A stretch of DNA of 8,258 nucleotides from IMG/VR virus record IMGVR_UViG_2563366829_000019, one strand, 5' to 3'. This document shows, one piece after another, positions 1 to 8,258 of this stretch. Numbering within the stretch: the stretch's first letter is position 1; every line of letters begins with the position of its first letter. This DNA is from a virus. Taxonomy: Duplodnaviria; Heunggongvirae; Uroviricota; Caudoviricetes. The notes beneath the pieces are model-generated. The model did not search any database. It had not been told where the DNA came from and saw nothing but the letters and a program-made list of their open reading frames with translations. The position numbers and the translations under genes were made by a program.

Positions 1-60
1 CGGCTTAACGATCACCAGCCCGAGTTCCGGTACCAGAACAGGTCGAAGTAATACCCGCAC
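1..60 (-). CDS. 5' end of an unidentified gene running off the left edge (first 20 codons, GTG start)
   Basis: Seen in sequence: GTG at 60..58 preceded by GGAGG at 4-nt spacing on the minus strand, 1 nt after the stop of the 92-aa gene; frame stays open to position 1. Product unknown. Confidence 0.3.
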   Translation of the reverse strand, partial: MRVLLRPVLVPELGLVIVKP

Positions 61-61
61 G

Positions 62-340
62 TTACCTCCAGATGCGTTGCTGGAATGTGCGGGACAGACG
101 CGGTGGGCGTTCGGAGTAAGGAAGCCTGACGGAGATTATCCAGTGACGGTAGTCGAGGCTAAGGGCTTTTTTAACCTCGCATCCGCGCCTGCGGTAACAC
201 TGAATGAGCCATTCGGCCTGTTCTTCAGTGCATGGGGGATGCTGGTACCAGTCTGACTTAAATGCGTGAGAATACCGCTCGTGCGTGTGGGCAAGAACGG
301 TCGAATTATCATGTTTGTAATATTTTGCGTTGCGTGCCAT
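62..340 (-). CDS. hypothetical prophage protein, 92 aa
   Basis: Complete ORF in the track with a GGAG Shine-Dalgarno 8 nt upstream of the ATG at 340..338. Same strand and tight spacing with rem-like and the next gene. No family recognised. Confidence 0.5.
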   Translation of the reverse strand: MARNAKYYKHDNSTVLAHTHERYSHAFKSDWYQHPPCTEEQAEWLIQCYRRRGCEVKKALSLDYRHWIISVRLPYSERPPRLSRTFQQRIWR

Positions 341-406
341 CGGTTTTCTCCGGTGGCACGGTGTTACTCAGCGGGAGTTCAGCCCCGCGCAAGATTGTAG
401 ATGAGT

Positions 407-658
407 TTATTCTTCTGAAAAAGCAGAAAAGCCAGCTTTTATTCCGATCTCTTTCAATACCTGTAATGAAGTGACAAACTCACCGTCGCGCAAGATAAAT
501 CCGTCCGTCACTCGGGCATCCACAAAATTAATTAACGCAGCCCCATTTTTTTGCAAACACACAATGCGGTAATGACTAACAATATTTCCATTTTCAACGC
601 ACACAGCATAGAGGCCATCTTCACAAAAAATTTTACGCAGTTCTTCGATGTTCATCAT
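407..658 (-). CDS. rem: Rem-like small prophage protein, 83 aa
   Basis: 83-aa ORF starting MMNIEELRKIF with a GGAAGGA Shine-Dalgarno upstream. It lies immediately downstream of hokD, as rem does in the Qin prophage of E. coli K-12 (recalled, not searched). Confidence 0.55.
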   Translation of the reverse strand: MMNIEELRKIFCEDGLYAVCVENGNIVSHYRIVCLQKNGAALINFVDARVTDGFILRDGEFVTSLQVLKEIGIKAGFSAFSEE

Positions 659-770
659 CAGAATCCTTCCGGATAATTAGCTCTCCCCTTTAAGGGACCA
701 TCCCTCTTATCCCTGCGCGCTACTTAAGTATTTTTGATTCTATTCCGGCACCGTCCAGAACTTCAAATGC

Positions 771-806
771 GTTGAAAATAAAAACAAAAACCCGCCGAAG
801 CGGGTT
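771..806 (-). terminator. Rho-independent terminator at the 3' end of the hok transcript
   Basis: Seen in sequence: 7-bp stem 789..795/800..806 (AACCCGC/GCGGGTT) with a 4-nt loop, followed on the minus strand by a U-rich run (plus-strand A-run 771..788). About 70 nt past the hok stop. Confidence 0.5.
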
Positions 807-845
807 AAGTGCGGGTGCGTTGAGAATGCCTGCCACATCAGAGGT

Positions 846-867
846 GGCGAGGGATTTCTCCCTCGCC
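846..867 (-). other. stable hairpin in the hok 3' UTR (fbi-like fold-back region)
   Basis: Seen in sequence: 9-bp perfect stem 846..854/859..867 with a 4-nt loop, 8 nt past the hok stop. Hok-family mRNAs carry 3' fold-back inhibitory structure. Confidence 0.4.
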
Positions 868-874
868 GGGTCTC

Positions 875-1030
875 TTACTCCTCAGGTTCGTAAGCTGTGA
901 AGACAGCGACCTCCGTCTGGCCGGTTCGGATTCGTACCTCGCAGAGGTCTTTCCTCGTTACCAGTGCCGTCACTATGACGGTTAAACAGATGACGATCAG
1001 GGCGATTAACATCGCCTTTTGCTGCTTCAT
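875..1030 (-). CDS. hokD: Hok-family type I toxin, 51 aa (HokD/RelF-type)
   Basis: Minus-strand ORF translating to MKQQKAMLIALIVICLTVIVTALVTRKDLCEVRIRTGQTEVAVFTAYEPEE, which matches HokD (RelF) of E. coli K-12 as I recall it. AAGGAGA Shine-Dalgarno 8 nt upstream. Absent from the ORF track only because it is short. Confidence 0.85.
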   Translation of the reverse strand: MKQQKAMLIALIVICLTVIVTALVTRKDLCEVRIRTGQTEVAVFTAYEPEE

Positions 1031-1086
1031 AGCCTGCTTCTCCTTGACCTTTCGGTCCGTAAGAGGCTAATCTCTATGTGTCGCAT
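1027..1086 (-). CDS. mok-like leader ORF, 19 codons, stop overlapping the hok start (ATGA)
   Basis: Seen in sequence: ATG at 1086..1084 with GAGG 8 nt upstream, translating to MRHIEISLLRTERSRRSRL, ending in a TGA that overlaps the hok ATG. Leader resembles the plasmid R1 hok/sok leader from memory. Confidence 0.4.
   Translation of the reverse strand: MRHIEISLLRTERSRRSRL
1044..1073 (+). promoter_or_regulatory. candidate sok-like antisense promoter (TTGACC, 18-nt spacer, TAATCT)
   Basis: Seen in sequence: -35 TTGACC at 1044..1049 and -10 TAATCT at 1068..1073 on the plus strand, firing antisense across the mok-like start and Shine-Dalgarno. Confidence 0.35.
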
Positions 1087-1150
1087 AGATATGGCCTCAG
1101 ATTAATGTTAAGCGTCTTGCAGGACGCGTAATGTTAACTGGGGCTTTTCT
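1080..1150 (+). ncRNA. candidate Sok-like antisense RNA (ends approximate)
   Basis: Inferred from the promoter at 1044..1073 and full complementarity to the mok-like translation initiation region (1084..1098). A GC hairpin at 1112..1127 (GCGTC/GACGC) could be part of a terminator. Ends not defined. Confidence 0.3.
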
Positions 1151-1205
1151 CTATCTGCCTTTTGGTGTTCATGCCTGAGACAGATAGCCTCAAGCACCCG
1201 CAGTT

Positions 1206-1233
1206 ATTCTACTTAACTAAGATTTCCCCGCAA
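1206..1233 (-). promoter_or_regulatory. candidate hok mRNA promoter (TTGCGG, 16-nt spacer, TAGAAT)
   Basis: Seen in sequence on the minus strand: -35 at 1233..1228 and -10 at 1211..1206, placing the start near 1200, just before a GCTTGAGGC motif that resembles the 5' end of R1 hok mRNA. Confidence 0.35.
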
Positions 1234-1288
1234 ACCGTTTTTGTCCGGCACAGTAAATATCCAACTAAACCAATGGCGTTCGCTGTAT

Positions 1289-1468
1289 TTACCGCCAGTA
1301 TTCAATGCACATGACCGCCATGAACACCCCTAAAAAAAGGGCATTTATATGTCCAAACATTAATATCAAAACATCAATTTTTTCCATATACCTTGCTGTG
1401 AAGATGATGGGCATACATGATGCGAACAACCAGAACGCAACAAACAAAAACTGCAATGCGTTTTTCAT
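1289..1468 (-). CDS. small hydrophobic membrane protein, 59 aa (72 aa from the upstream GTG)
   Basis: ATG at 1468..1466 preceded by AGGGGGAA at 5-nt spacing. Product MKNALQFLFVAFWLFASCMPIIF...LILMFGHINALFLGVFMAVMCIEYWR has two predicted hydrophobic segments. Sits in an AT-rich stretch; function unknown. Confidence 0.4.
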   Translation of the reverse strand: MKNALQFLFVAFWLFASCMPIIFTARYMEKIDVLILMFGHINALFLGVFMAVMCIEYWR

Positions 1469-1588
1469 TATTCCCCCTACAATCAATGTGCAATAACATT
1501 TAAACACACCTCAATTTGGCCGGACATATAAATATCTAAACCAGAAAAAATCACTTACATAGCGTTACAAACTCTTTAGTCTAAATAT

Positions 1589-2104
1589 TCATCGTAAAAC
1601 ATCCTCCACGCTTATCAGTCCATTTCGTTTCAGGTAATCTATCGCCTTCTCCGGTAATTTGCAGTCCGGCTGAGCTTTTTTCAGTTGACTGACCAGTCGT
1701 TTAACCCACATTGTTAATTCGCTAACCTGATTGCCGGATGCTGGTGGATTGTCGGCTTTACCCAGAATGGCAGCGCAGCAGGCCTCTCTGAGCACCCAGT
1801 CAACAGCATCCTTCCATGCTCCTGTTTCGACTGGCGGATTCTCACGCTTTACCTGTTCATAAAAGCGCACGGCTTTAACCAGTCCTTCTGATGTCACCGG
1901 GACTGGCGGGCCGATGAATAAGGCCTGAATTTCATAGTTCGGCCTGTCGTTACAATCCTCTTTTGTCGGTACATATTTCCAGTCACCAGCCCACGGCTTC
2001 CCCTGAAAGTCTGTAACGTCTTTTTTCACGTAGCGATATCGCCATGCAACTGGTTTTGCCTGCCCTGCCGTTTCATGCCCTTCCTGATAATTAATCTCGC
2101 TCAT
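1589..2104 (-). CDS. hypothetical prophage protein, 171 aa, Trp-rich
   Basis: Complete ORF. Its ATG (2104..2102) overlaps the stop of the upstream gene fragment (ATGA), indicating translational coupling in an operon. No family recognised. Confidence 0.6.
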   Translation of the reverse strand: MSEINYQEGHETAGQAKPVAWRYRYVKKDVTDFQGKPWAGDWKYVPTKEDCNDRPNYEIQALFIGPPVPVTSEGLVKAVRFYEQVKRENPPVETGAWKDAVDWVLREACCAAILGKADNPPASGNQVSELTMWVKRLVSQLKKAQPDCKLPEKAIDYLKRNGLISVEDVLR

Positions 2105-2258
2105 TCATCGCCCCACTCATCACAATATGCTTCGACCGGAGTTTTTCCTGCTTCATAATCATCACGCCATGCTTCAGCATCAGCAGCACTGCCACCACGT
2201 AACTCTGCATAGTCCATTAACAGTTCATGCCATGCTTCAAAACTGACGTTGTATTTAG
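2101..2258 (-). pseudogene. 3'-terminal fragment (51 codons) of a gene cut by IS5
   Basis: Seen in sequence: frame open from the IS5 boundary at 2258 down to TGA at 2103..2101, translating to ...KYNVSFEAWHELLMDYAELRGGSAADAEAWRDDYEAGKTPVEAYCDEWGDE. No start codon; the 5' part is missing. Confidence 0.5.
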
Positions 2259-3453
<1,195 letters not shown>

Positions 3454-3463
3454 TTAAAACACA

Positions 3464-5938
3464 ATGAGTAAAATCTTTATTTGCGCTGCTATTCCTGACG
3501 AACAGGCCATAAAAGAAGATAGCGCTGTTGCGGTGGCCACTGCCATTGAAGCCGGTGATGAACGTCGCGCCCGCGCAAAATTTCACTGGCAATTCCTGGA
3601 ACATTATCCGGCTGCTCAGGACTGCGCTTATAAATTTCTTGTTTGCGAGGATAAACCCGGCATACCCCGCCCTGCCCTCGATTCCTGGGATGCTGAATAT
3701 ATGCAGGAAAACCGCTGGGATGAGGAATCCGCTTCCTTTATTCCGGTCGAACCAGAATCCGATCCGATGAACGTCAATTTTGACAAGCTGTCCCTTGAAG
3801 TACAGAACGCGGTCCTGGTTAAGTTCGGTACATGTGAAAACATCACCGTTGATATGGCGATTGACGCGCAGGAATTACTGCAGGAAGACGTTGCTACCTT
3901 TGACGGGCATATCGTTGAAGCACTGATGAAAACGCCTGAAATTAACGCTATGTATCCGGAACGCAAACTGTTCGCTATCGGATGGGTTAAACACAAATGT
4001 AATCCGGGTGCCAAATGGCCAGAAATTCAGGCTGAATTACGTAACTGGAAAAAACGGCAGGACGCAGAGCGCAAAGAGACTGGAAAATACACGTCTGTTG
4101 TTGATCTCGCCCGCGCCAGAGTCAATCAACAGCACACTGAAAACTCAGCAGGAAAAATCAACCCAGTCACTGCCGCCATTTGTCGCGAATACAAGCAGAC
4201 ATGGAAAACGCTGGATGAAGAACTGGCCTACGCTCTCTGGCCTGGCGATATTGATACCGGAAACATTGACGGCAGCATCCATCGCCGGGCAAAAAATGAA
4301 GTTATCGACAAAGATCGCGAAGACTGGAAGCGCATTTCCGCATCAATGCGCAAACAACCCGATGCCGTTCGCTACGACCGTCAGACTATTTTTGGCCTTG
4401 TCCGTGAGCGTCCGATCGACATTCACAAAGATCCCGTAGCACTGAACAAATACATCACTGAATACCTGACTACCAAGGGCGTGTTTGAAGATGACGAAGG
4501 AACAAATCAGGGCACAGCTGGTACTCTCCCGTCACCAGTACCAGAAACTGATGCAGTGGAAACGGCAATGCCGGACAACGAAAAAACCGAATGCGAAGTG
4601 GAAGACGAACCATCTGTAGAGCGTGAGGGACCGTTCTACTTCCTTTTCACCGATAAGGACGGCGAAAAATACGGTCGCGCAAACAAACTTTCTGGTCTGG
4701 AAAAAGCACTGGCCCTGGGAGCTACGGAAATCACAAAAGAGGAATACTTCGCACGTAAAAACGGCACGTACTCAGGTTCACAACAAAATACTGGTGCATC
4801 TGACACGATCGCACAACCAGAGCCGGTAAAAGTTACCGCTGACGAAGTAAACAAAATTATGCAGGCAGCCAATATCAGCCAGCCTGACGCCAATAAGTTG
4901 CTTGCTGTATCACGTGGTGAATTTGTTGCAGGGATTAGCGACCCGAATGATCCGAAATGGGTGAAGGGGATTGAAACCCGCGATTCAGTGAATCAGAACC
5001 AGCAAGAAACGGAACAGAACGGCCAGAAAGCGGAACAAAACAGCCCAAATGCGTTACAAAACGAGCCAGAAACGAAACATCCTGAACCAGTGGCGCAACA
5101 GGAAGTGGAAAAAGTCTGCACCGCCTGCGGTCAGACCGGCGGCGGCAACTACCCTGATTGTGGCGCGGTGATGGGCGACGCAACATACCAGGAAACATTC
5201 GATGAAGAGTATCAGGTTGAAGTTCAGGAAGATGATCCGGAGGAAATGGAAGGCGCTGAACATCCACACAAGGAGAACACTGGCGGCAATCAGCATCACG
5301 ATAGCGATAATGAAACTGGCGAGACGGCAGATCACTCAATTAAGGTGAACGGTCATCAAGAAATCACATCCACCAGCAGGACGTGTGACCATCTAATGAT
5401 CGACCTTGAAACCATGGGAAAAAATCCTGATGCCCCGATCATCTCAATAGGTGCAATATTTTTCGATCCGCAAACCGGAGATATGGGACCGGAATTTAGT
5501 AAGACTATCGATCTGGAAACTGCTGGCGGAGTCATTGATCGGGACACCATTAAATGGTGGCTTAAGCAATCACGCGAAGCGCAATCTGCCATTATGACCG
5601 ATGAAATCCCGTTAGATGATGCACTGTTACAATTGCGGGAATTTATCGACGAAAACTCCGGTGAATTTTTTGTTCAGGTCTGGGGAAATGGAGCCAACTT
5701 CGACAACACGATTTTGCGCCGTTCATACGAACGGCAGGGGATCCCCTGCCCGTGGCGTTACTACAACGATCGCGATGTACGCACAATCGTTGAGCTGGGG
5801 AAAGCCATAGACTTCGATGCCAGAACGGCTATTCCATTCGAAGGTGAGCGCCATAATGCACTTGATGACGCTCGTTACCAGGCAAAATACGTTTCAGCTA
5901 TCTGGCAAAAACTGATCCCGAGTCAGGCTGATTTTTAA
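3464..5938 (+). CDS. RecE-like protein with a C-terminal DEDDh-type 3'-5' exonuclease domain (annotated in prophages as exodeoxyribonuclease VIII)
   Basis: Central region shares motifs I recall from E. coli RecE (KLLAVSRGEFVAGISDPNDPKWVKGIETRD; CTACGQTGGGNYPDCGAVMGDATYQETF). The last ~190 aa carry DnaQ-like exonuclease motifs (IDLETMG, WGNGANFD, HNALDDARY). No Shine-Dalgarno in the 10 bp between IS5 and the ATG. Confidence 0.8.
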   Translation: MSKIFICAAIPDEQAIKEDSAVAVATAIEAGDERRARAKFHWQFLEHYPAAQDCAYKFLVCEDKPGIPRPALDSWDAEYMQENRWDEESASFIPVEPESDPMNVNFDKLSLEVQNAVLVKFGTCENITVDMAIDAQELLQEDVATFDGHIVEALMKTPEINAMYPERKLFAIGWVKHKCNPGAKWPEIQAELRNWKKRQDAERKETGKYTSVVDLARARVNQQHTENSAGKINPVTAAICREYKQTWKTLDEELAYALWPGDIDTGNIDGSIHRRAKNEVIDKDREDWKRISASMRKQPDAVRYDRQTIFGLVRERPIDIHKDPVALNKYITEYLTTKGVFEDDEGTNQGTAGTLPSPVPETDAVETAMPDNEKTECEVEDEPSVEREGPFYFLFTDKDGEKYGRANKLSGLEKALALGATEITKEEYFARKNGTYSGSQQNTGASDTIAQPEPVKVTADEVNKIMQAANISQPDANKLLAVSRGEFVAGISDPNDPKWVKGIETRDSVNQNQQETEQNGQKAEQNSPNALQNEPETKHPEPVAQQEVEKVCTACGQTGGGNYPDCGAVMGDATYQETFDEEYQVEVQEDDPEEMEGAEHPHKENTGGNQHHDSDNETGETADHSIKVNGHQEITSTSRTCDHLMIDLETMGKNPDAPIISIGAIFFDPQTGDMGPEFSKTIDLETAGGVIDRDTIKWWLKQSREAQSAIMTDEIPLDDALLQLREFIDENSGEFFVQVWGNGANFDNTILRRSYERQGIPCPWRYYNDRDVRTIVELGKAIDFDARTAIPFEGERHNALDDARYQAKYVSAIWQKLIPSQADF

Positions 5939-5953
5939 TGTTCAACCCTAATT

Positions 5954-5979
5954 GCCGCTAACCGTATATAGTTAGCGGC
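5954..5979. repeat. perfect inverted repeat / hairpin GCCGCTAAC-N8-GTTAGCGGC
   Basis: Seen in sequence between the RecE-like stop and the xis-like start; 9-bp arms with an 8-nt spacer (CGTATATA). Not followed by a T-run. Confidence 0.45.
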
Positions 5980-5996
5980 GGTTATGAGATATAGCT

Positions 5997-6200
5997 ATGA
6001 GCAGCTTATTTTTAACCGAAGATGAATTGCTAATATTAACGGGCTGCAAATATGCAAGCCACCAGCGAAAATGGTTAATGGAAAACGGGCTTCCGTTCTA
6101 TACCAATCGTAGTGGCAAACCGATTGTCAGCCGGGATCTATTTACCTGCAATAAAACTTTACCACCACGCGAGGTAGAGCCGAATTTTGGTGCGATCTGA
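5997..6200 (+). CDS. small Xis-like protein, 67 aa (DUF4224-like by recollection)
   Basis: Sits directly upstream of int and its stop overlaps the int ATG (TGATG). Size, position and the N-terminal LTEDELLILTG motif fit small excisionase-like proteins paired with integrases. Confidence 0.5.
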   Translation: MSSLFLTEDELLILTGCKYASHQRKWLMENGLPFYTNRSGKPIVSRDLFTCNKTLPPREVEPNFGAI

Positions 6201-7225
6201 TGGGAAGACGAAGGAAAAATCCTGAACACGAAAAATTACCTCCAAATGTATACCCAAATAAATATAGTTATGTATGGAAACCAACATCCAGAGAATCTGT
6301 CACACTAACCGCCATCAAGGATGGTTTAGCTGCTTTATGGAAAAAGTATGAGGAAACTGTAAATAATCGCGATCGTGCAATGACATTCGGTCGCTTGTGG
6401 GAAAAATTCCTCGCCAGCGCCTGTTACAGTGACCTTAGTCCAAGAACACAAAAAGATTATCTGCAACATCAAAAAAAGTTGCTTGCCGTATTCGGTAAGG
6501 TACCAGCGGATTCCATAAAACCAGAACACATCCGTCGATACATGGACAAAAGAGGGGAGCAGAGTAAAACGCAAGCCAACCATGAAAAAAGCAGTATGTC
6601 CCGTGTTTACAGTTGGGGGTATGAGCGAGGGTACGTCAAGGCTAACCCATGTGCAGGTGTAAGTAAATTCAAGGCCAAAAACCGCGAACGATATGTAACC
6701 GACAAAGAATACCAGGCAGTATTAAGCGTTGCACCTCTTCCTGTTTTTATCGCAATGGAAATTGCCTATCTGTGTGCAGCGAGGGTTTCCGATGTGTTAT
6801 CGCTGAAATGGGAACAGATTGGAAACGACGGGATATTCATCCAGCAAGGGAAAACCGGAAAAAAACAGATAAAAGCATGGAGTCCACGATTACAGGCAGC
6901 GATCGAAAAAGCAAAACAGTTACCAAAATCTGCCTATGTGATCAGCAATCAATACGGCAACCGATATATGTACAAAGGCTTTAACGAAATGTGGGTAGAA
7001 GCAAGAAATCGTGCTGGAAAAATTTCAGGTATTTTAACCGACTTCACCTTTCATGATCTGAAGGCGAAAGGAATTTCAGACTATGAAGGAAGCAGCCGGG
7101 ATAAGCAACTTTTCTCTGGTCACAAAACCGAAGGGCAAGTGCTAATCTATGACAGGAAGGTTAAAGTTTCACCAACACTTGATGTCCCGTTACCTGAAAA
7201 TATTCCAAGAAAATATTCCAAGTAA
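6200..7225 (+). CDS. int: lambda-family tyrosine integrase
   Basis: 341 aa. Aligns by eye to the lambda Int catalytic region: Arg in ARVSDVLSLKWEQI, Lys in QGKTGKK, His in GHKTEG, Tyr in LIYDRK. The HxxR box reads H-D-L-K. Lies next to the 3' end of the tRNA. Confidence 0.85.
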   Translation: MGRRRKNPEHEKLPPNVYPNKYSYVWKPTSRESVTLTAIKDGLAALWKKYEETVNNRDRAMTFGRLWEKFLASACYSDLSPRTQKDYLQHQKKLLAVFGKVPADSIKPEHIRRYMDKRGEQSKTQANHEKSSMSRVYSWGYERGYVKANPCAGVSKFKAKNRERYVTDKEYQAVLSVAPLPVFIAMEIAYLCAARVSDVLSLKWEQIGNDGIFIQQGKTGKKQIKAWSPRLQAAIEKAKQLPKSAYVISNQYGNRYMYKGFNEMWVEARNRAGKISGILTDFTFHDLKAKGISDYEGSSRDKQLFSGHKTEGQVLIYDRKVKVSPTLDVPLPENIPRKYSK

Positions 7226-7232
7226 TTCCAAG
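7202..7232. repeat. three copies of ATTCCAAG (last two in tandem at 10-bp spacing) across the int 3' end
   Basis: Seen in sequence: ATTCCAAG at 7202..7209, 7215..7222 and 7225..7232, about 50 bp from the tRNA 3' end. Position fits integrase arm-type binding sites. Confidence 0.35.
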
Positions 7233-7277
7233 TGTGATTTTTGTCACTGACTTAATGATGTGTAAGTGATTGAATTT

Positions 7278-7367
7278 TGGCGGAGAGAGGGGGATTTGAA
7301 CCCCCGGTGGAGTTGCCCCCACTCCGGTTTTCGAGACCGGTCCGTTCAGCCGCTCCGGCATCTCTCC
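7278..7367 (-). tRNA. serU: tRNA-Ser (anticodon CGA)
   Basis: Reverse complement folds as a 90-nt class II tRNA: acceptor stem GGAGAGA/TCTCTCC, anticodon stem CCGGT/ACCGG with loop CU-CGA-AA, long variable arm GTGGGG-GCAA-CTCCAC, T-arm GGGGG-TTCAAAT-CCCCC, 3' CCA encoded. Confidence 0.9.
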
Positions 7368-7460
7368 GTTCAGATGGTTGCCATGATGCCAGGAAATTTG
7401 GCATTTTAACAGTCCCTGTCCGTGCAATTTTGTTCAAGTGACGAGTTTGCGAGCAAAACG

Positions 7461-8258
7461 ATGATTAAGTGGCCCTGGAAAGTACAAGAATCAGCACATC
7501 AAACTGCCCTTCCCTGGCAGGAAGCACTATCGATCCCCCTTTTAACGTGTCTGACAGAACAGGAACAAAGCAAATTGGTCGCTCTTGCCGAACGTTTTTT
7601 ACAGCAAAAACGGCTTGTTCCTTTACAGGGCTTTGAGCTGAATTCATTAAGAAGCTGCCGGATAGCACTTCTATTTTGCCTGCCCGTTCTGGAGTTAGGA
7701 CTGGAATGGCTGGATGGTTTTCATGAAGTCTTAATTTATCCTGCGCCATTTGTGGTCGATGATGAATGGGAAGACGATATCGGTCTGGTGCATAACCAAC
7801 GTATTGTTCAGTCAGGTCAGAGCTGGCAGCAAGGGCCTATCGTTTTGAACTGGTTGGATATACAAGATTCTTTTGATGCTTCTGGTTTTAACCTGATTAT
7901 TCATGAAGTCGCTCATAAGCTGGACACCCGTAACGGCGATCGCGCCAGCGGAGTTCCCTTTATTTCGTTGCGTGAGGTTGCTGGCTGGGAACACGATCTT
8001 CATGCTGCAATGAACAACATTCAGGAAGAAATCGAATTAGTTGGTGAGAATGCGGCGAGCATTGATGCTTATGCTGCCAGTGATCCTGCTGAATGTTTTG
8101 CCGTACTTTCTGAATATTTCTTTAGCGCCCCAGAACTTTTTGCTCCTCGTTTCCCTTCATTGTGGCAACGTTTCTGTCAATTTTATCAACAAGATCCTTT
8201 GCAGAGACTGCATCACGCTAATGATACAGACTCGTTTTCGGCGACGAATGTTCATTAA
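7461..8258 (+). CDS. mtfA: MtfA (Mlc titration factor A, YeeI), 265 aa
   Basis: Product [24 protein letters not shown]...DSFSATNVH matches MtfA as recalled. Start taken at the internal ATG (7461), not the track's 7422, to give the 265-aa form. Stop is the last codon of the window. Confidence 0.9.

Follow-up and report, generated by a model that had tools for sequence, protein, structure and literature searches.

A hok/sok-family type I toxin-antitoxin module encoding HokD in a defective lambdoid prophage

Our analysis of the window (the whole stretch of DNA that was studied, 8258 bp in length) revealed on its minus strand (1234..775) a module that is very probably an intact hok/sok-family type I toxin-antitoxin (TA) system of the form found in lambdoid prophages, the hokD/hokW group, residing in a defective prophage at tRNA-Ser(CGA). 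The locus is a known kind of genetic element and a known member of that kind. The original prediction of a complete hok/sok-type locus at 771-1233 was borne out, since every element that it listed was found, with positions agreeing to within a few bases. For each of these elements we could document its presence, its homology to related loci and its pairing potential, and our reading of the sequence revealed no disrupted element anywhere in the module. The suggestion that the locus is intact and possibly active is plausible, since its close homologue hokW-sokW works as a type I TA system.

Organization of the module

In the direction of hok transcription, the elements follow each other in the order promoter, 5' tac, a local hairpin, ucb, an imperfect palindrome, the mok SD, mok, dcb, the hok SD, hok, a 3' hairpin, fbi, and terminator (Table 1). 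A convergently oriented gene for a Sok-like RNA is set within the leader of the hok mRNA. The hok-sense strand matches the Rfam family RF01794 (sok/hok leader) between 1199 and 1028 with 106.7 bits (gathering score, 59; E = 4e-24), and this match covers model positions 1-157 of 157. Homology between loci starts at about the hok -10 region and ends just past the T-run of the terminator, so that the module appears as a cassette of about 430-460 bp, which is present in several prophage contexts.

Table 1. Features of the hok/sok-type module and the evidence used to place them (window coordinates).
Feature	Position	Strand	Evidence
Putative hok promoter: -35-like TTTGCG/TTGCGG 1234..1228, -10 TAGAAT 1211..1206	1234..1206	-	Sequence
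Predicted full-length hok mRNA, ~417 nt	1201..785	-	5' end, alignment to R1-type and Sp5 loci; 3' end, terminator
tac (translational activator) GCGGGUGCUUGAGG	1201..1188	-	MFE pairing with fbi; Rfam pairing with ucb
ucb (upstream complementary box) AAGCCCC	1146..1140	-	MFE pairs GCCCCAG with CUGAGGC; Rfam pairs ucb with tac
mok SD GAGG	1098..1095	-	Sequence
mok-like ORF, 19 codons (MRHIEISLLRTERSRRSRL); ATG 1086, TGA 1029..1027	1086..1027	-	Sequence reading
dcb (downstream complementary box) GCCUC	1067..1063	-	Rfam consensus stem with mok SD; constrained fold
hok SD AAGGAG	1045..1040	-	Sequence
hok toxin gene (hokD allele), 51 aa	1030..875	-	ORF list; Pfam; RefSeq annotation
3' GC-rich hairpin	867..846	-	Sequence, fold
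fbi (fold-back inhibition) UCUCAACGCACCCGC	825..811	-	Complementary to 5' end; MFE pairing
Intrinsic terminator: stem-loop 806..789 and T-run	806..775	-	Terminator scan; homology ends just past T-run
Putative sok promoter: -35 TTGACC 1044..1049, 18-nt spacer, -10 TAATCT 1068..1073	1044..1073	+	Sequence; position as upstream of annotated sokW
Predicted Sok-like RNA, ~69 nt	1080..1148	+	Maps onto annotated 71-nt sokW of VT2-Sakai

The toxin gene and the mok reading frame

The deduced toxin covers the entire Pfam profile PF01848 (HOK_GEF) with a score of 82.9 bits (cut-off, 22); when the same protein was searched against NCBIfam, Hok subfamily matches were obtained only below their curated cut-offs (48.5 vs 73). 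It is 100% identical to HokD of Escherichia coli K-12, with which it shares the accession WP_000813254.1, and RefSeq uses the name HokD for this protein. The initial assignment of the toxin to HokD/RelF is therefore correct. The same holds for the 19-codon mok-like reading frame described at the outset, whose TGA stop codon overlaps the hok start codon as ATGA.

We compared 81 loci that encode an identical toxin and found that 66 of them possess a 70-codon, in-frame mok of the mokW type, while a 19-codon mok ending in ATGA is present in 12, the window included. The leader is absent from the remaining three loci, two of which are fusions to relE and one of which carries an IS insertion. Across the relatives considered in this study, three mok architectures are thus represented: in-frame, +1-overlapping, and the 19-codon AUGA type. 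For one locus (L082), a fusion of hokD to a type II TA system was considered and rejected, as the gene upstream of hokD there encodes an IS transposase.

Promoters and the Sok-like antisense RNA

A generic sigma-70 scan called neither the hok promoter, which attains 8/12 matches against a threshold of 9 of 12, nor the sok promoter, which likewise falls below this threshold; both were therefore assigned by homology to sokW and to the R1 system. That neither promoter passes such a scan counts against an intact module. Most of 77 related leader-bearing loci have kept the hok -10 hexamer together with the adjoining GTTAAGTAGAAT, and the sok -35 hexamer of the window (TTGACC) is nearer to the consensus than that of the majority allele (TTGCCT). 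The only other promoter-like element called by the generic scan (766..737) is located ahead of rem.

The hexamers of the convergent antisense promoter that had been proposed for a Sok-like RNA are present, and their placement is supported by homology to sokW. The sokW-homologous span coincides with the site at which an RNA of ~65 nt had been predicted. This Sok-like RNA would begin with a single-stranded 5' tail of ~14 nt, followed by a long terminator hairpin with a U tail; its fold (1079..1150, plus strand) has a predicted energy of -30.2 kcal/mol (z = -5.3). It is fully complementary to the hok mRNA over ucb, the mok SD and the mok start.

Folding of the hok mRNA

The full-length hok mRNA is predicted to fold with an energy of -172.5 kcal/mol (z = -9.1 vs shuffles). 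In this minimum free energy (MFE) structure, tac and fbi form a helix of 14 bp, while the Rfam consensus pairs tac with ucb. The 5' element noticed originally (GCTTGAGGC; 1195..1187, minus strand) is situated within tac, and the remainder of what had been described as a full hok-type leader followed by 3' hairpins and a terminator was recovered as well, including the hairpin downstream of hok, fbi, and the terminator stem-loop.

For an evolutionary assessment of these structures, we aligned 67 loci (the window, Sp5, Rac and 64 IMG/VR contigs with an identical toxin; mean identity, 94%). The predicted pairs are kept in 97.6% of cases, and double changes occur at 8 pairs, compared with 2.5 +/- 1.1 in shuffles; these changes cluster in the 5' hairpin, the Sok stem and the terminator. 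The tac/fbi helix (helix 1) is paired in 99.5% of cases but is almost invariant, so that covariation is informative in neither direction; this silence is a point that the reading of the module as intact has to bear. One pair of the helix shows a C-A mismatch in 5/67 loci, and fbi itself is nearly invariant across the alignment.

The unconstrained MFE structure of an RNA lacking its 3' end differs from the R1-like active fold, which likewise speaks against an intact module. Because the active form was not obtained in this way, we compared the energies of constrained folds. The energetic penalty for imposing the R1-like active fold is +14.5 kcal/mol for the full-length RNA, and it falls to +1.7 kcal/mol when the 3' end (831..784) is removed. 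In these folding models, the drop in the predicted cost of the active fold upon 3' removal matches the switch published for R1 (PMC9841398).

Comparison with the hokW-sokW, R1 and Rac-type loci

The mokW/hokW/sokW locus of the Stx2 phages 933W and VT2-Sakai (Sp5) is 91.4% identical to the window region over 416 nt (query positions 16-431 of 463), from the promoter to fbi. The database records of both phages carry annotations for mokW, hokW and a 71-nt sokW antisense RNA. The 5' tac end, the Sok terminator hairpin and fbi are nearly the same in the two loci, both of which are hosted by lambdoid prophages. HokW and the window toxin are identical in 47/51 residues, and all four differences fall within the last seven. 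The loci differ in the Sok 5' tail (~15 nt) and the target loop, and also in mok: mokW has 70 codons, is in frame with hokW and ends at the hok stop codon, whereas mok of the window has 19 codons, is out of frame and ends at the hok start codon. The change of frame is accounted for by two differences from Sp5, namely a 2-nt gap that follows the ATG and a 1-nt insertion (GGTCAAGG). The position within the prophage differs as well, in that the module is found near the right end of 933W and Sp5, and upstream of rem and Q in E. coli AR_0013, whose locus is identical to that of the window.

Functional data are available for hokW-sokW (PMC8621323). It is a type I TA system with a toxic HokW protein, and sokW expressed from its own promoter neutralizes the toxin in an RNase III- and Hfq-dependent manner. 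The primers published in that study are nearly identical to the 5' end of the window module. HokW is 44% identical to Hok of R1 (PMC8621323).

The type system, hok/sok (parB) of plasmid R1, follows the same logic as the window module, with tac/fbi, ucb, an SD/dcb hairpin, a convergent sok promoter in the leader, a Hok/Gef toxin, and a terminator after fbi. Conservation of tac, ucb, the SD/dcb hairpin and the hok SD was evident from our alignment of the window with a plasmid hok locus of the R1 type. Compared with the window, the 5' hairpin region of the R1 leader is longer and its Sok stem is shorter. R1 mok, at ~70 codons, overlaps hok in another reading frame. R1 hok/sok further differs in being plasmid-borne and in having a demonstrated role in post-segregational killing (PSK).

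Rac-type hok/mok loci (MN652886, KU052037) are 94% identical to the window over 95% of the region and are followed, as in the window, by rem and a Q antiterminator module. Their mok and hok genes are annotated; the 68-codon mok shares the R1 arrangement, a +1-frame overlap with hok, and the toxin carries the substitution I19V.

Relationship to relB-relE-hokD of E. coli K-12

In the Qin prophage of E. coli K-12, hokD takes third place in the relB-relE-hokD operon, with only 14 nt retained upstream of its ATG; it is co-transcribed with relBE (PMC3598666). Homology between Qin and the window is limited to window positions 1..1044 (94.9% identity), and direct alignment and blastn agree on this end point. 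The toxins are identical, and the hok SD, the coding sequence, the 3' UTR, fbi and the terminator are 99% identical; rem (658..407), which lies downstream of hok, is also common to both. The breakpoint, at window position 1044, falls within the sok -35 hexamer; past it, K-12 has relE where the window has tac, ucb, mok, the Sok target and the sok promoter. These data uphold the statement that K-12 hokD stands third in relB-relE-hokD and lacks mok/sok elements, and the alignment to K-12 that had been proposed as a check shows that its hokD does not carry the leader present in the window.

Tblastn searches detected neither RelB nor RelE in the 8258-bp window (best E-values, 0.11-0.55), and relBE is likewise absent from the 9 kb on either side of the 100%-identical locus of AR_0013. 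The statement that relB and relE are missing here consequently stands, and the possibility of a relBE pair just beyond the region is ruled out by the same two lines of evidence. We conclude that relBE-hokD of K-12 is a derived truncation of the full module. The relE-hokD junction is found in 1165/5426 complete E. coli genomes.

Distribution of the full-leader form

We surveyed 5426 complete E. coli genomes and found the full-leader form in at least 2529 of them, that is, in about half (match to >=80% of a 601-nt query); it is the form that predominates in this species. E. coli AR_0013 matches the query, which was taken from the region of the locus, at 100% identity, and the open reading frame is annotated there as hokD. 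The number of hok-type matches in the same genomes has a median of 2 and ranges up to 9 per genome. The full module is also present in 77 of the 80 IMG/VR viral contigs with an identical toxin, and it occurs in 79 phage records, several of them with mok, hok and sok annotated.

The literature contains related observations. A passage in PMC7232551 attributes to Pedersen and Gerdes 1999 the finding that hok loci of K-12 are inactivated by IS elements, point mutation or rearrangement, and an apparently intact hokD homologue has been reported in the AIEC strain NRG857c (PMC7232551). A preprint of 2025-26 describes 44,248 Hok homologues and an approximately four-fold enrichment of hok in prophages, and it reports that HokD is toxic when expressed (bioRxiv 10.1101/2025.08.07.668861).

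It is in one respect that the original prediction did not hold, namely the rarity that it implied for this form of the locus. The idea of a rare or new ancestral hokD that has escaped notice might be prompted by the reference strain K-12, which has no leader, and by RefSeq entries that annotate the hokD coding sequence with no mok or sok under the leader. We give it practically no credence, however. The genome counts, the phage records, which include the mokW/hokW/sokW annotation of 933W and VT2-Sakai, and the report on NRG857c refute the claim of novelty; moreover, Rfam RF01794 already covers the locus, and the rearrangement in K-12 is credited, in the passage cited above, to Pedersen and Gerdes 1999.

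Allelic variation

Compared with the majority allele, the window copy has a target loop just after the mok ATG that is shorter by 2 nt, the 1-nt insertion mentioned above and several substitutions in the hairpin. The shorter loop and the different mok frame are features that an intact module has to accommodate. The exact mok/Sok allele of the window is present in ~780-813 complete E. coli genomes and in the species-representative genome of E. albertii (NBRC 107761 = DSM 17582), and it is found with several different upstream flanks. We therefore reject the idea that the 19-codon mok is a private frameshift, since 12/81 viral loci that differ in their flanks carry it, as do ~800 E. coli genomes and E. 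albertii. To judge from its sequence, nothing in the window allele looks disabling.

Among prophage modules with an identical HokD, the Sok 5' tail and the mok-start target hairpin make up the only strongly variable part. We found 17 alleles of this segment, with 0.205 differences per column, compared with 0.006 in the coding sequence and 0.04-0.09 in the other non-coding parts. One might speculate that diversifying selection, favouring Sok/hok "immunity" specificities that are orthogonal to each other, lies behind this hot spot, with the short-loop, short-mok allele of the window representing one class; we consider this rather unlikely and put it forward tentatively. If it were true, several hok-bearing prophages could coexist in a cell with no Sok RNA neutralizing the toxin of another. 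A within-genome check of two genomes gave one with two identical alleles and one with two different alleles, a result that is neutral with respect to this idea. The mildly new material in this study is at the level of alleles, and comprises the Sok-tail hot spot and the three interchangeable mok architectures.

Proposed mode of action

The R1 model comprises four steps (PMC9841398): closure of tac on fbi with ucb on the mok SD; 3' trimming; refolding into the tac/ucb and SD/dcb pairs; and either binding of Sok or mok-coupled translation of hok. From this model and from hokW-sokW, we infer how the window copy would be transcribed, processed, controlled by Sok and rendered toxic. A weak constitutive promoter would direct the synthesis of a stable hok mRNA of ~417 nt. 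With the 5' tac locked to the 3' fbi and the mok ribosome-binding site held by ucb, this transcript would be neither translated nor bound by Sok. Slow exonucleolytic trimming from the 3' end would remove fbi, upon which the 5' end would pair with ucb and the mok SD would shift into the SD/dcb hairpin, where it would become accessible to Sok. The short-lived Sok RNA (~69 nt), produced from the convergent promoter, would bind there and block translation of mok, and the duplex would be cut by RNase III. Once the supply of Sok is stopped by loss of the element, by DNA damage or prophage induction, or by a shut-off of transcription, the 19-codon mok would be translated; ribosomes stopping at AUGA would re-initiate on hok, and the 51-aa Hok protein would enter the inner membrane and cause cell death or arrest.

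Prophage context and possible roles of the module

The host of the module is a lambdoid prophage at tRNA-Ser(CGA), adjoining mtfA, with an integrase gene, a DUF4224 excisionase-like gene and a gene for an 824-aa exonuclease. An IS5 element (window 2259..3453) stands in place of ~7 kb that contain dicB, cI/cro-like and replication genes in AR_0013. Because the immunity and replication genes are lost, the prophage is defective; the hok/sok module within it is intact. The defect of the host prophage nevertheless has to be set against an intact module.

The same mechanism could serve a phage-related role in place of maintenance by PSK, namely help with lysis at induction, as described for hokW-sokW, or abortive infection directed at other phages upon a shut-off of host transcription. 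We regard this as a serious contender, somewhat short of an even chance. The presence of hokW-sokW accelerates lysis and doubles the release of phage Sp5 after mitomycin C treatment, and the loss of Sok RNA in this system is RecA-dependent (PMC8621323); the prophage enrichment of hok reported in the preprint cited above and the location of the module at the early-to-late junction, upstream of rem, DUF968, rusA and Q, point in the same direction. However, a role as a lysis helper cannot operate in the window prophage, given the loss of its immunity and replication region, and hok is not enriched near defence systems (bioRxiv 10.1101/2025.08.07.668861). No sequence feature separates the candidate roles.

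A structurally complete but silent locus, from which the RNAs are perhaps made and the toxin is never released and which persists by hitch-hiking in a decaying prophage, seems improbable to us. Such a fate would be in keeping with the loss of ~7 kb next to IS5, with the weak consensus matches of both promoters, and with a target loop that is shorter, and a mok frame that is shifted, in comparison with the majority and hokW alleles. Earlier work, in the summary given by one passage of the preprint (bioRxiv 10.1101/2025.08.07.668861), found no PSK by chromosomal hokA, hokB and hokC, a result that also weighs against reading the window module as intact. Set against silence are the absence of any disrupted element, the activity of the close homologue hokW-sokW (PMC8621323), and the gross truncation, by relE fusion or IS insertion, that inactivated modules display. 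Furthermore, the toxin reading frame and the pairing boxes are kept in hundreds of genomes with varied flanks, which speaks for purifying selection acting on the module as a whole.

Implications

K-12, with its truncated hokD behind relBE, is the exception; what E. coli prophages commonly carry in nature is the complete module with its own regulation. Such loci can be mistaken for orphan toxins of the K-12 kind, since RefSeq marks the hokD coding sequence alone, with no feature for mok or sok. The Sok-tail and mok alleles that occur naturally with one and the same toxin may provide a panel for studies of antisense specificity and translational coupling.

Integration site and loss of prophage modules

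The gene arrangement at the prophage end, with the 3' end of the tRNA-Ser(CGA) gene pointing towards the integrase, is typical of integration at the 3' end of a tRNA gene. The related AR_0013 prophage of E. coli, which is elsewhere 98-99.9% identical to the window, carries exactly at the position of the IS5 element a stretch of about 7 kb that contains dicB, cI/cro-like regulators, replication genes and nin-like genes. The presence of IS5 in place of these genes indicates that the immunity and replication modules of the window prophage were lost through an IS5-associated deletion.

Flanks of the hok/sok module

The sole consensus-grade sigma-70 site of the region (TTGAAG, 18-nt spacer, TAGAAT) directly follows the hok terminator and precedes rem, of which it is probably the promoter. 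On the other side of the module, the AT-rich DNA directly upstream of the hok promoter contains a small hydrophobic ORF that encodes 72 amino acids from a GTG start or 59 amino acids from an internal ATG (MKNALQFLFVAFWLF...). Pfam gave no match for this ORF, and the AR_0013 annotation shows no gene at the corresponding position.

Features of the prophage, the hok/sok module and the comparison loci
Feature	Sequence	Coordinates	Strand	Remark
Prophage end	window	5997..7367
DUF4224 excisionase-like gene	window	5997..6200
Tyrosine integrase	window	6200..7225		341 aa
tRNA-Ser(CGA)	window	7278..7367	(-)
mtfA	window	start 7422
IS5	window	2259..3453		1195 bp
IS5 transposase ORF	window	3385..2405	(-)
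Stretch at IS5 position	AR_0013 (L002)	1026..8042
Predicted rem promoter	window	737..766	(-)
rem	window	658..407
hok codon 47, TAC	window	890..892	(-)	context CUUACGAA
mok type 1	window	1027..1086	(-)	19 codons
Sok 5' tail and mok-start hairpin	window	1063..1096	(-)	alignment columns ~106-141
Small hydrophobic ORF	window	1289..1507	(-)
mok type 2 (mokW type)	L003	1632..1844		70 codons
mok type 3 (Rac)	L004	1638..1844		68 codons
Leaderless hokD locus	L082	1341..2500		IMG/VR contig 2548876852_000004

Annotation and loss of the leader

At the E. coli genome matches H121-H127, RefSeq (PGAP) contains no features under the mok/sok leader, and the hokD coding sequence alone is annotated nearby; mokW and sokW features are present in the older 933W and VT2-Sakai records. 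In the contig with the leaderless hokD locus (L082), everything 5' of the hok SD is replaced by an IS transposase gene (362 amino acids) on the opposite strand, an arrangement that represents a third kind of leaderless hokD. Its junction (ACAGGAGAAGCAGG) lies at most 1-2 bases from the relE-hokD junction of K-12, and this near coincidence means that the leader was cut at almost one site by at least two routes.

A conserved tyrosine codon near the C-terminus of the toxin

Codon 47 of hok specifies a Tyr residue near the C-terminus, stands in a UACG context, and is kept in all 67 aligned loci. TadA-mediated A-to-I editing of the hokC, hokD, and hokE mRNAs is reported to recode a Tyr to the second cysteine, which is needed for a disulfide bond (preprint, bioRxiv 10.1101/2025.08.07.668861).

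Diversity of mok and of the Sok tail

Three mok architectures surround what is essentially one toxin: the first ends in ATGA (12 of 81 loci), the mokW type is in the hok frame (66 of 81), and the Rac type overlaps hok in the +1 frame. Such variation around an essentially unchanged toxin suggests that the delivery of ribosomes is what matters, not the Mok peptide.

Among 65 distinct loci, all with an identical HokD, diversity is concentrated in the Sok 5' tail and the mok-start hairpin. This segment comprises 17 alleles and has 0.205 differences per column, compared with 0.006 for the coding sequence and 0.04-0.09 for the other non-coding parts. Substitutions in the stem of the hairpin are in part compensatory across the aligned loci. 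Each of two genomes possesses two copies of the locus; one pair shares the same allele and the other pair carries different alleles. The hot spot may reflect a diversification of antisense specificity.
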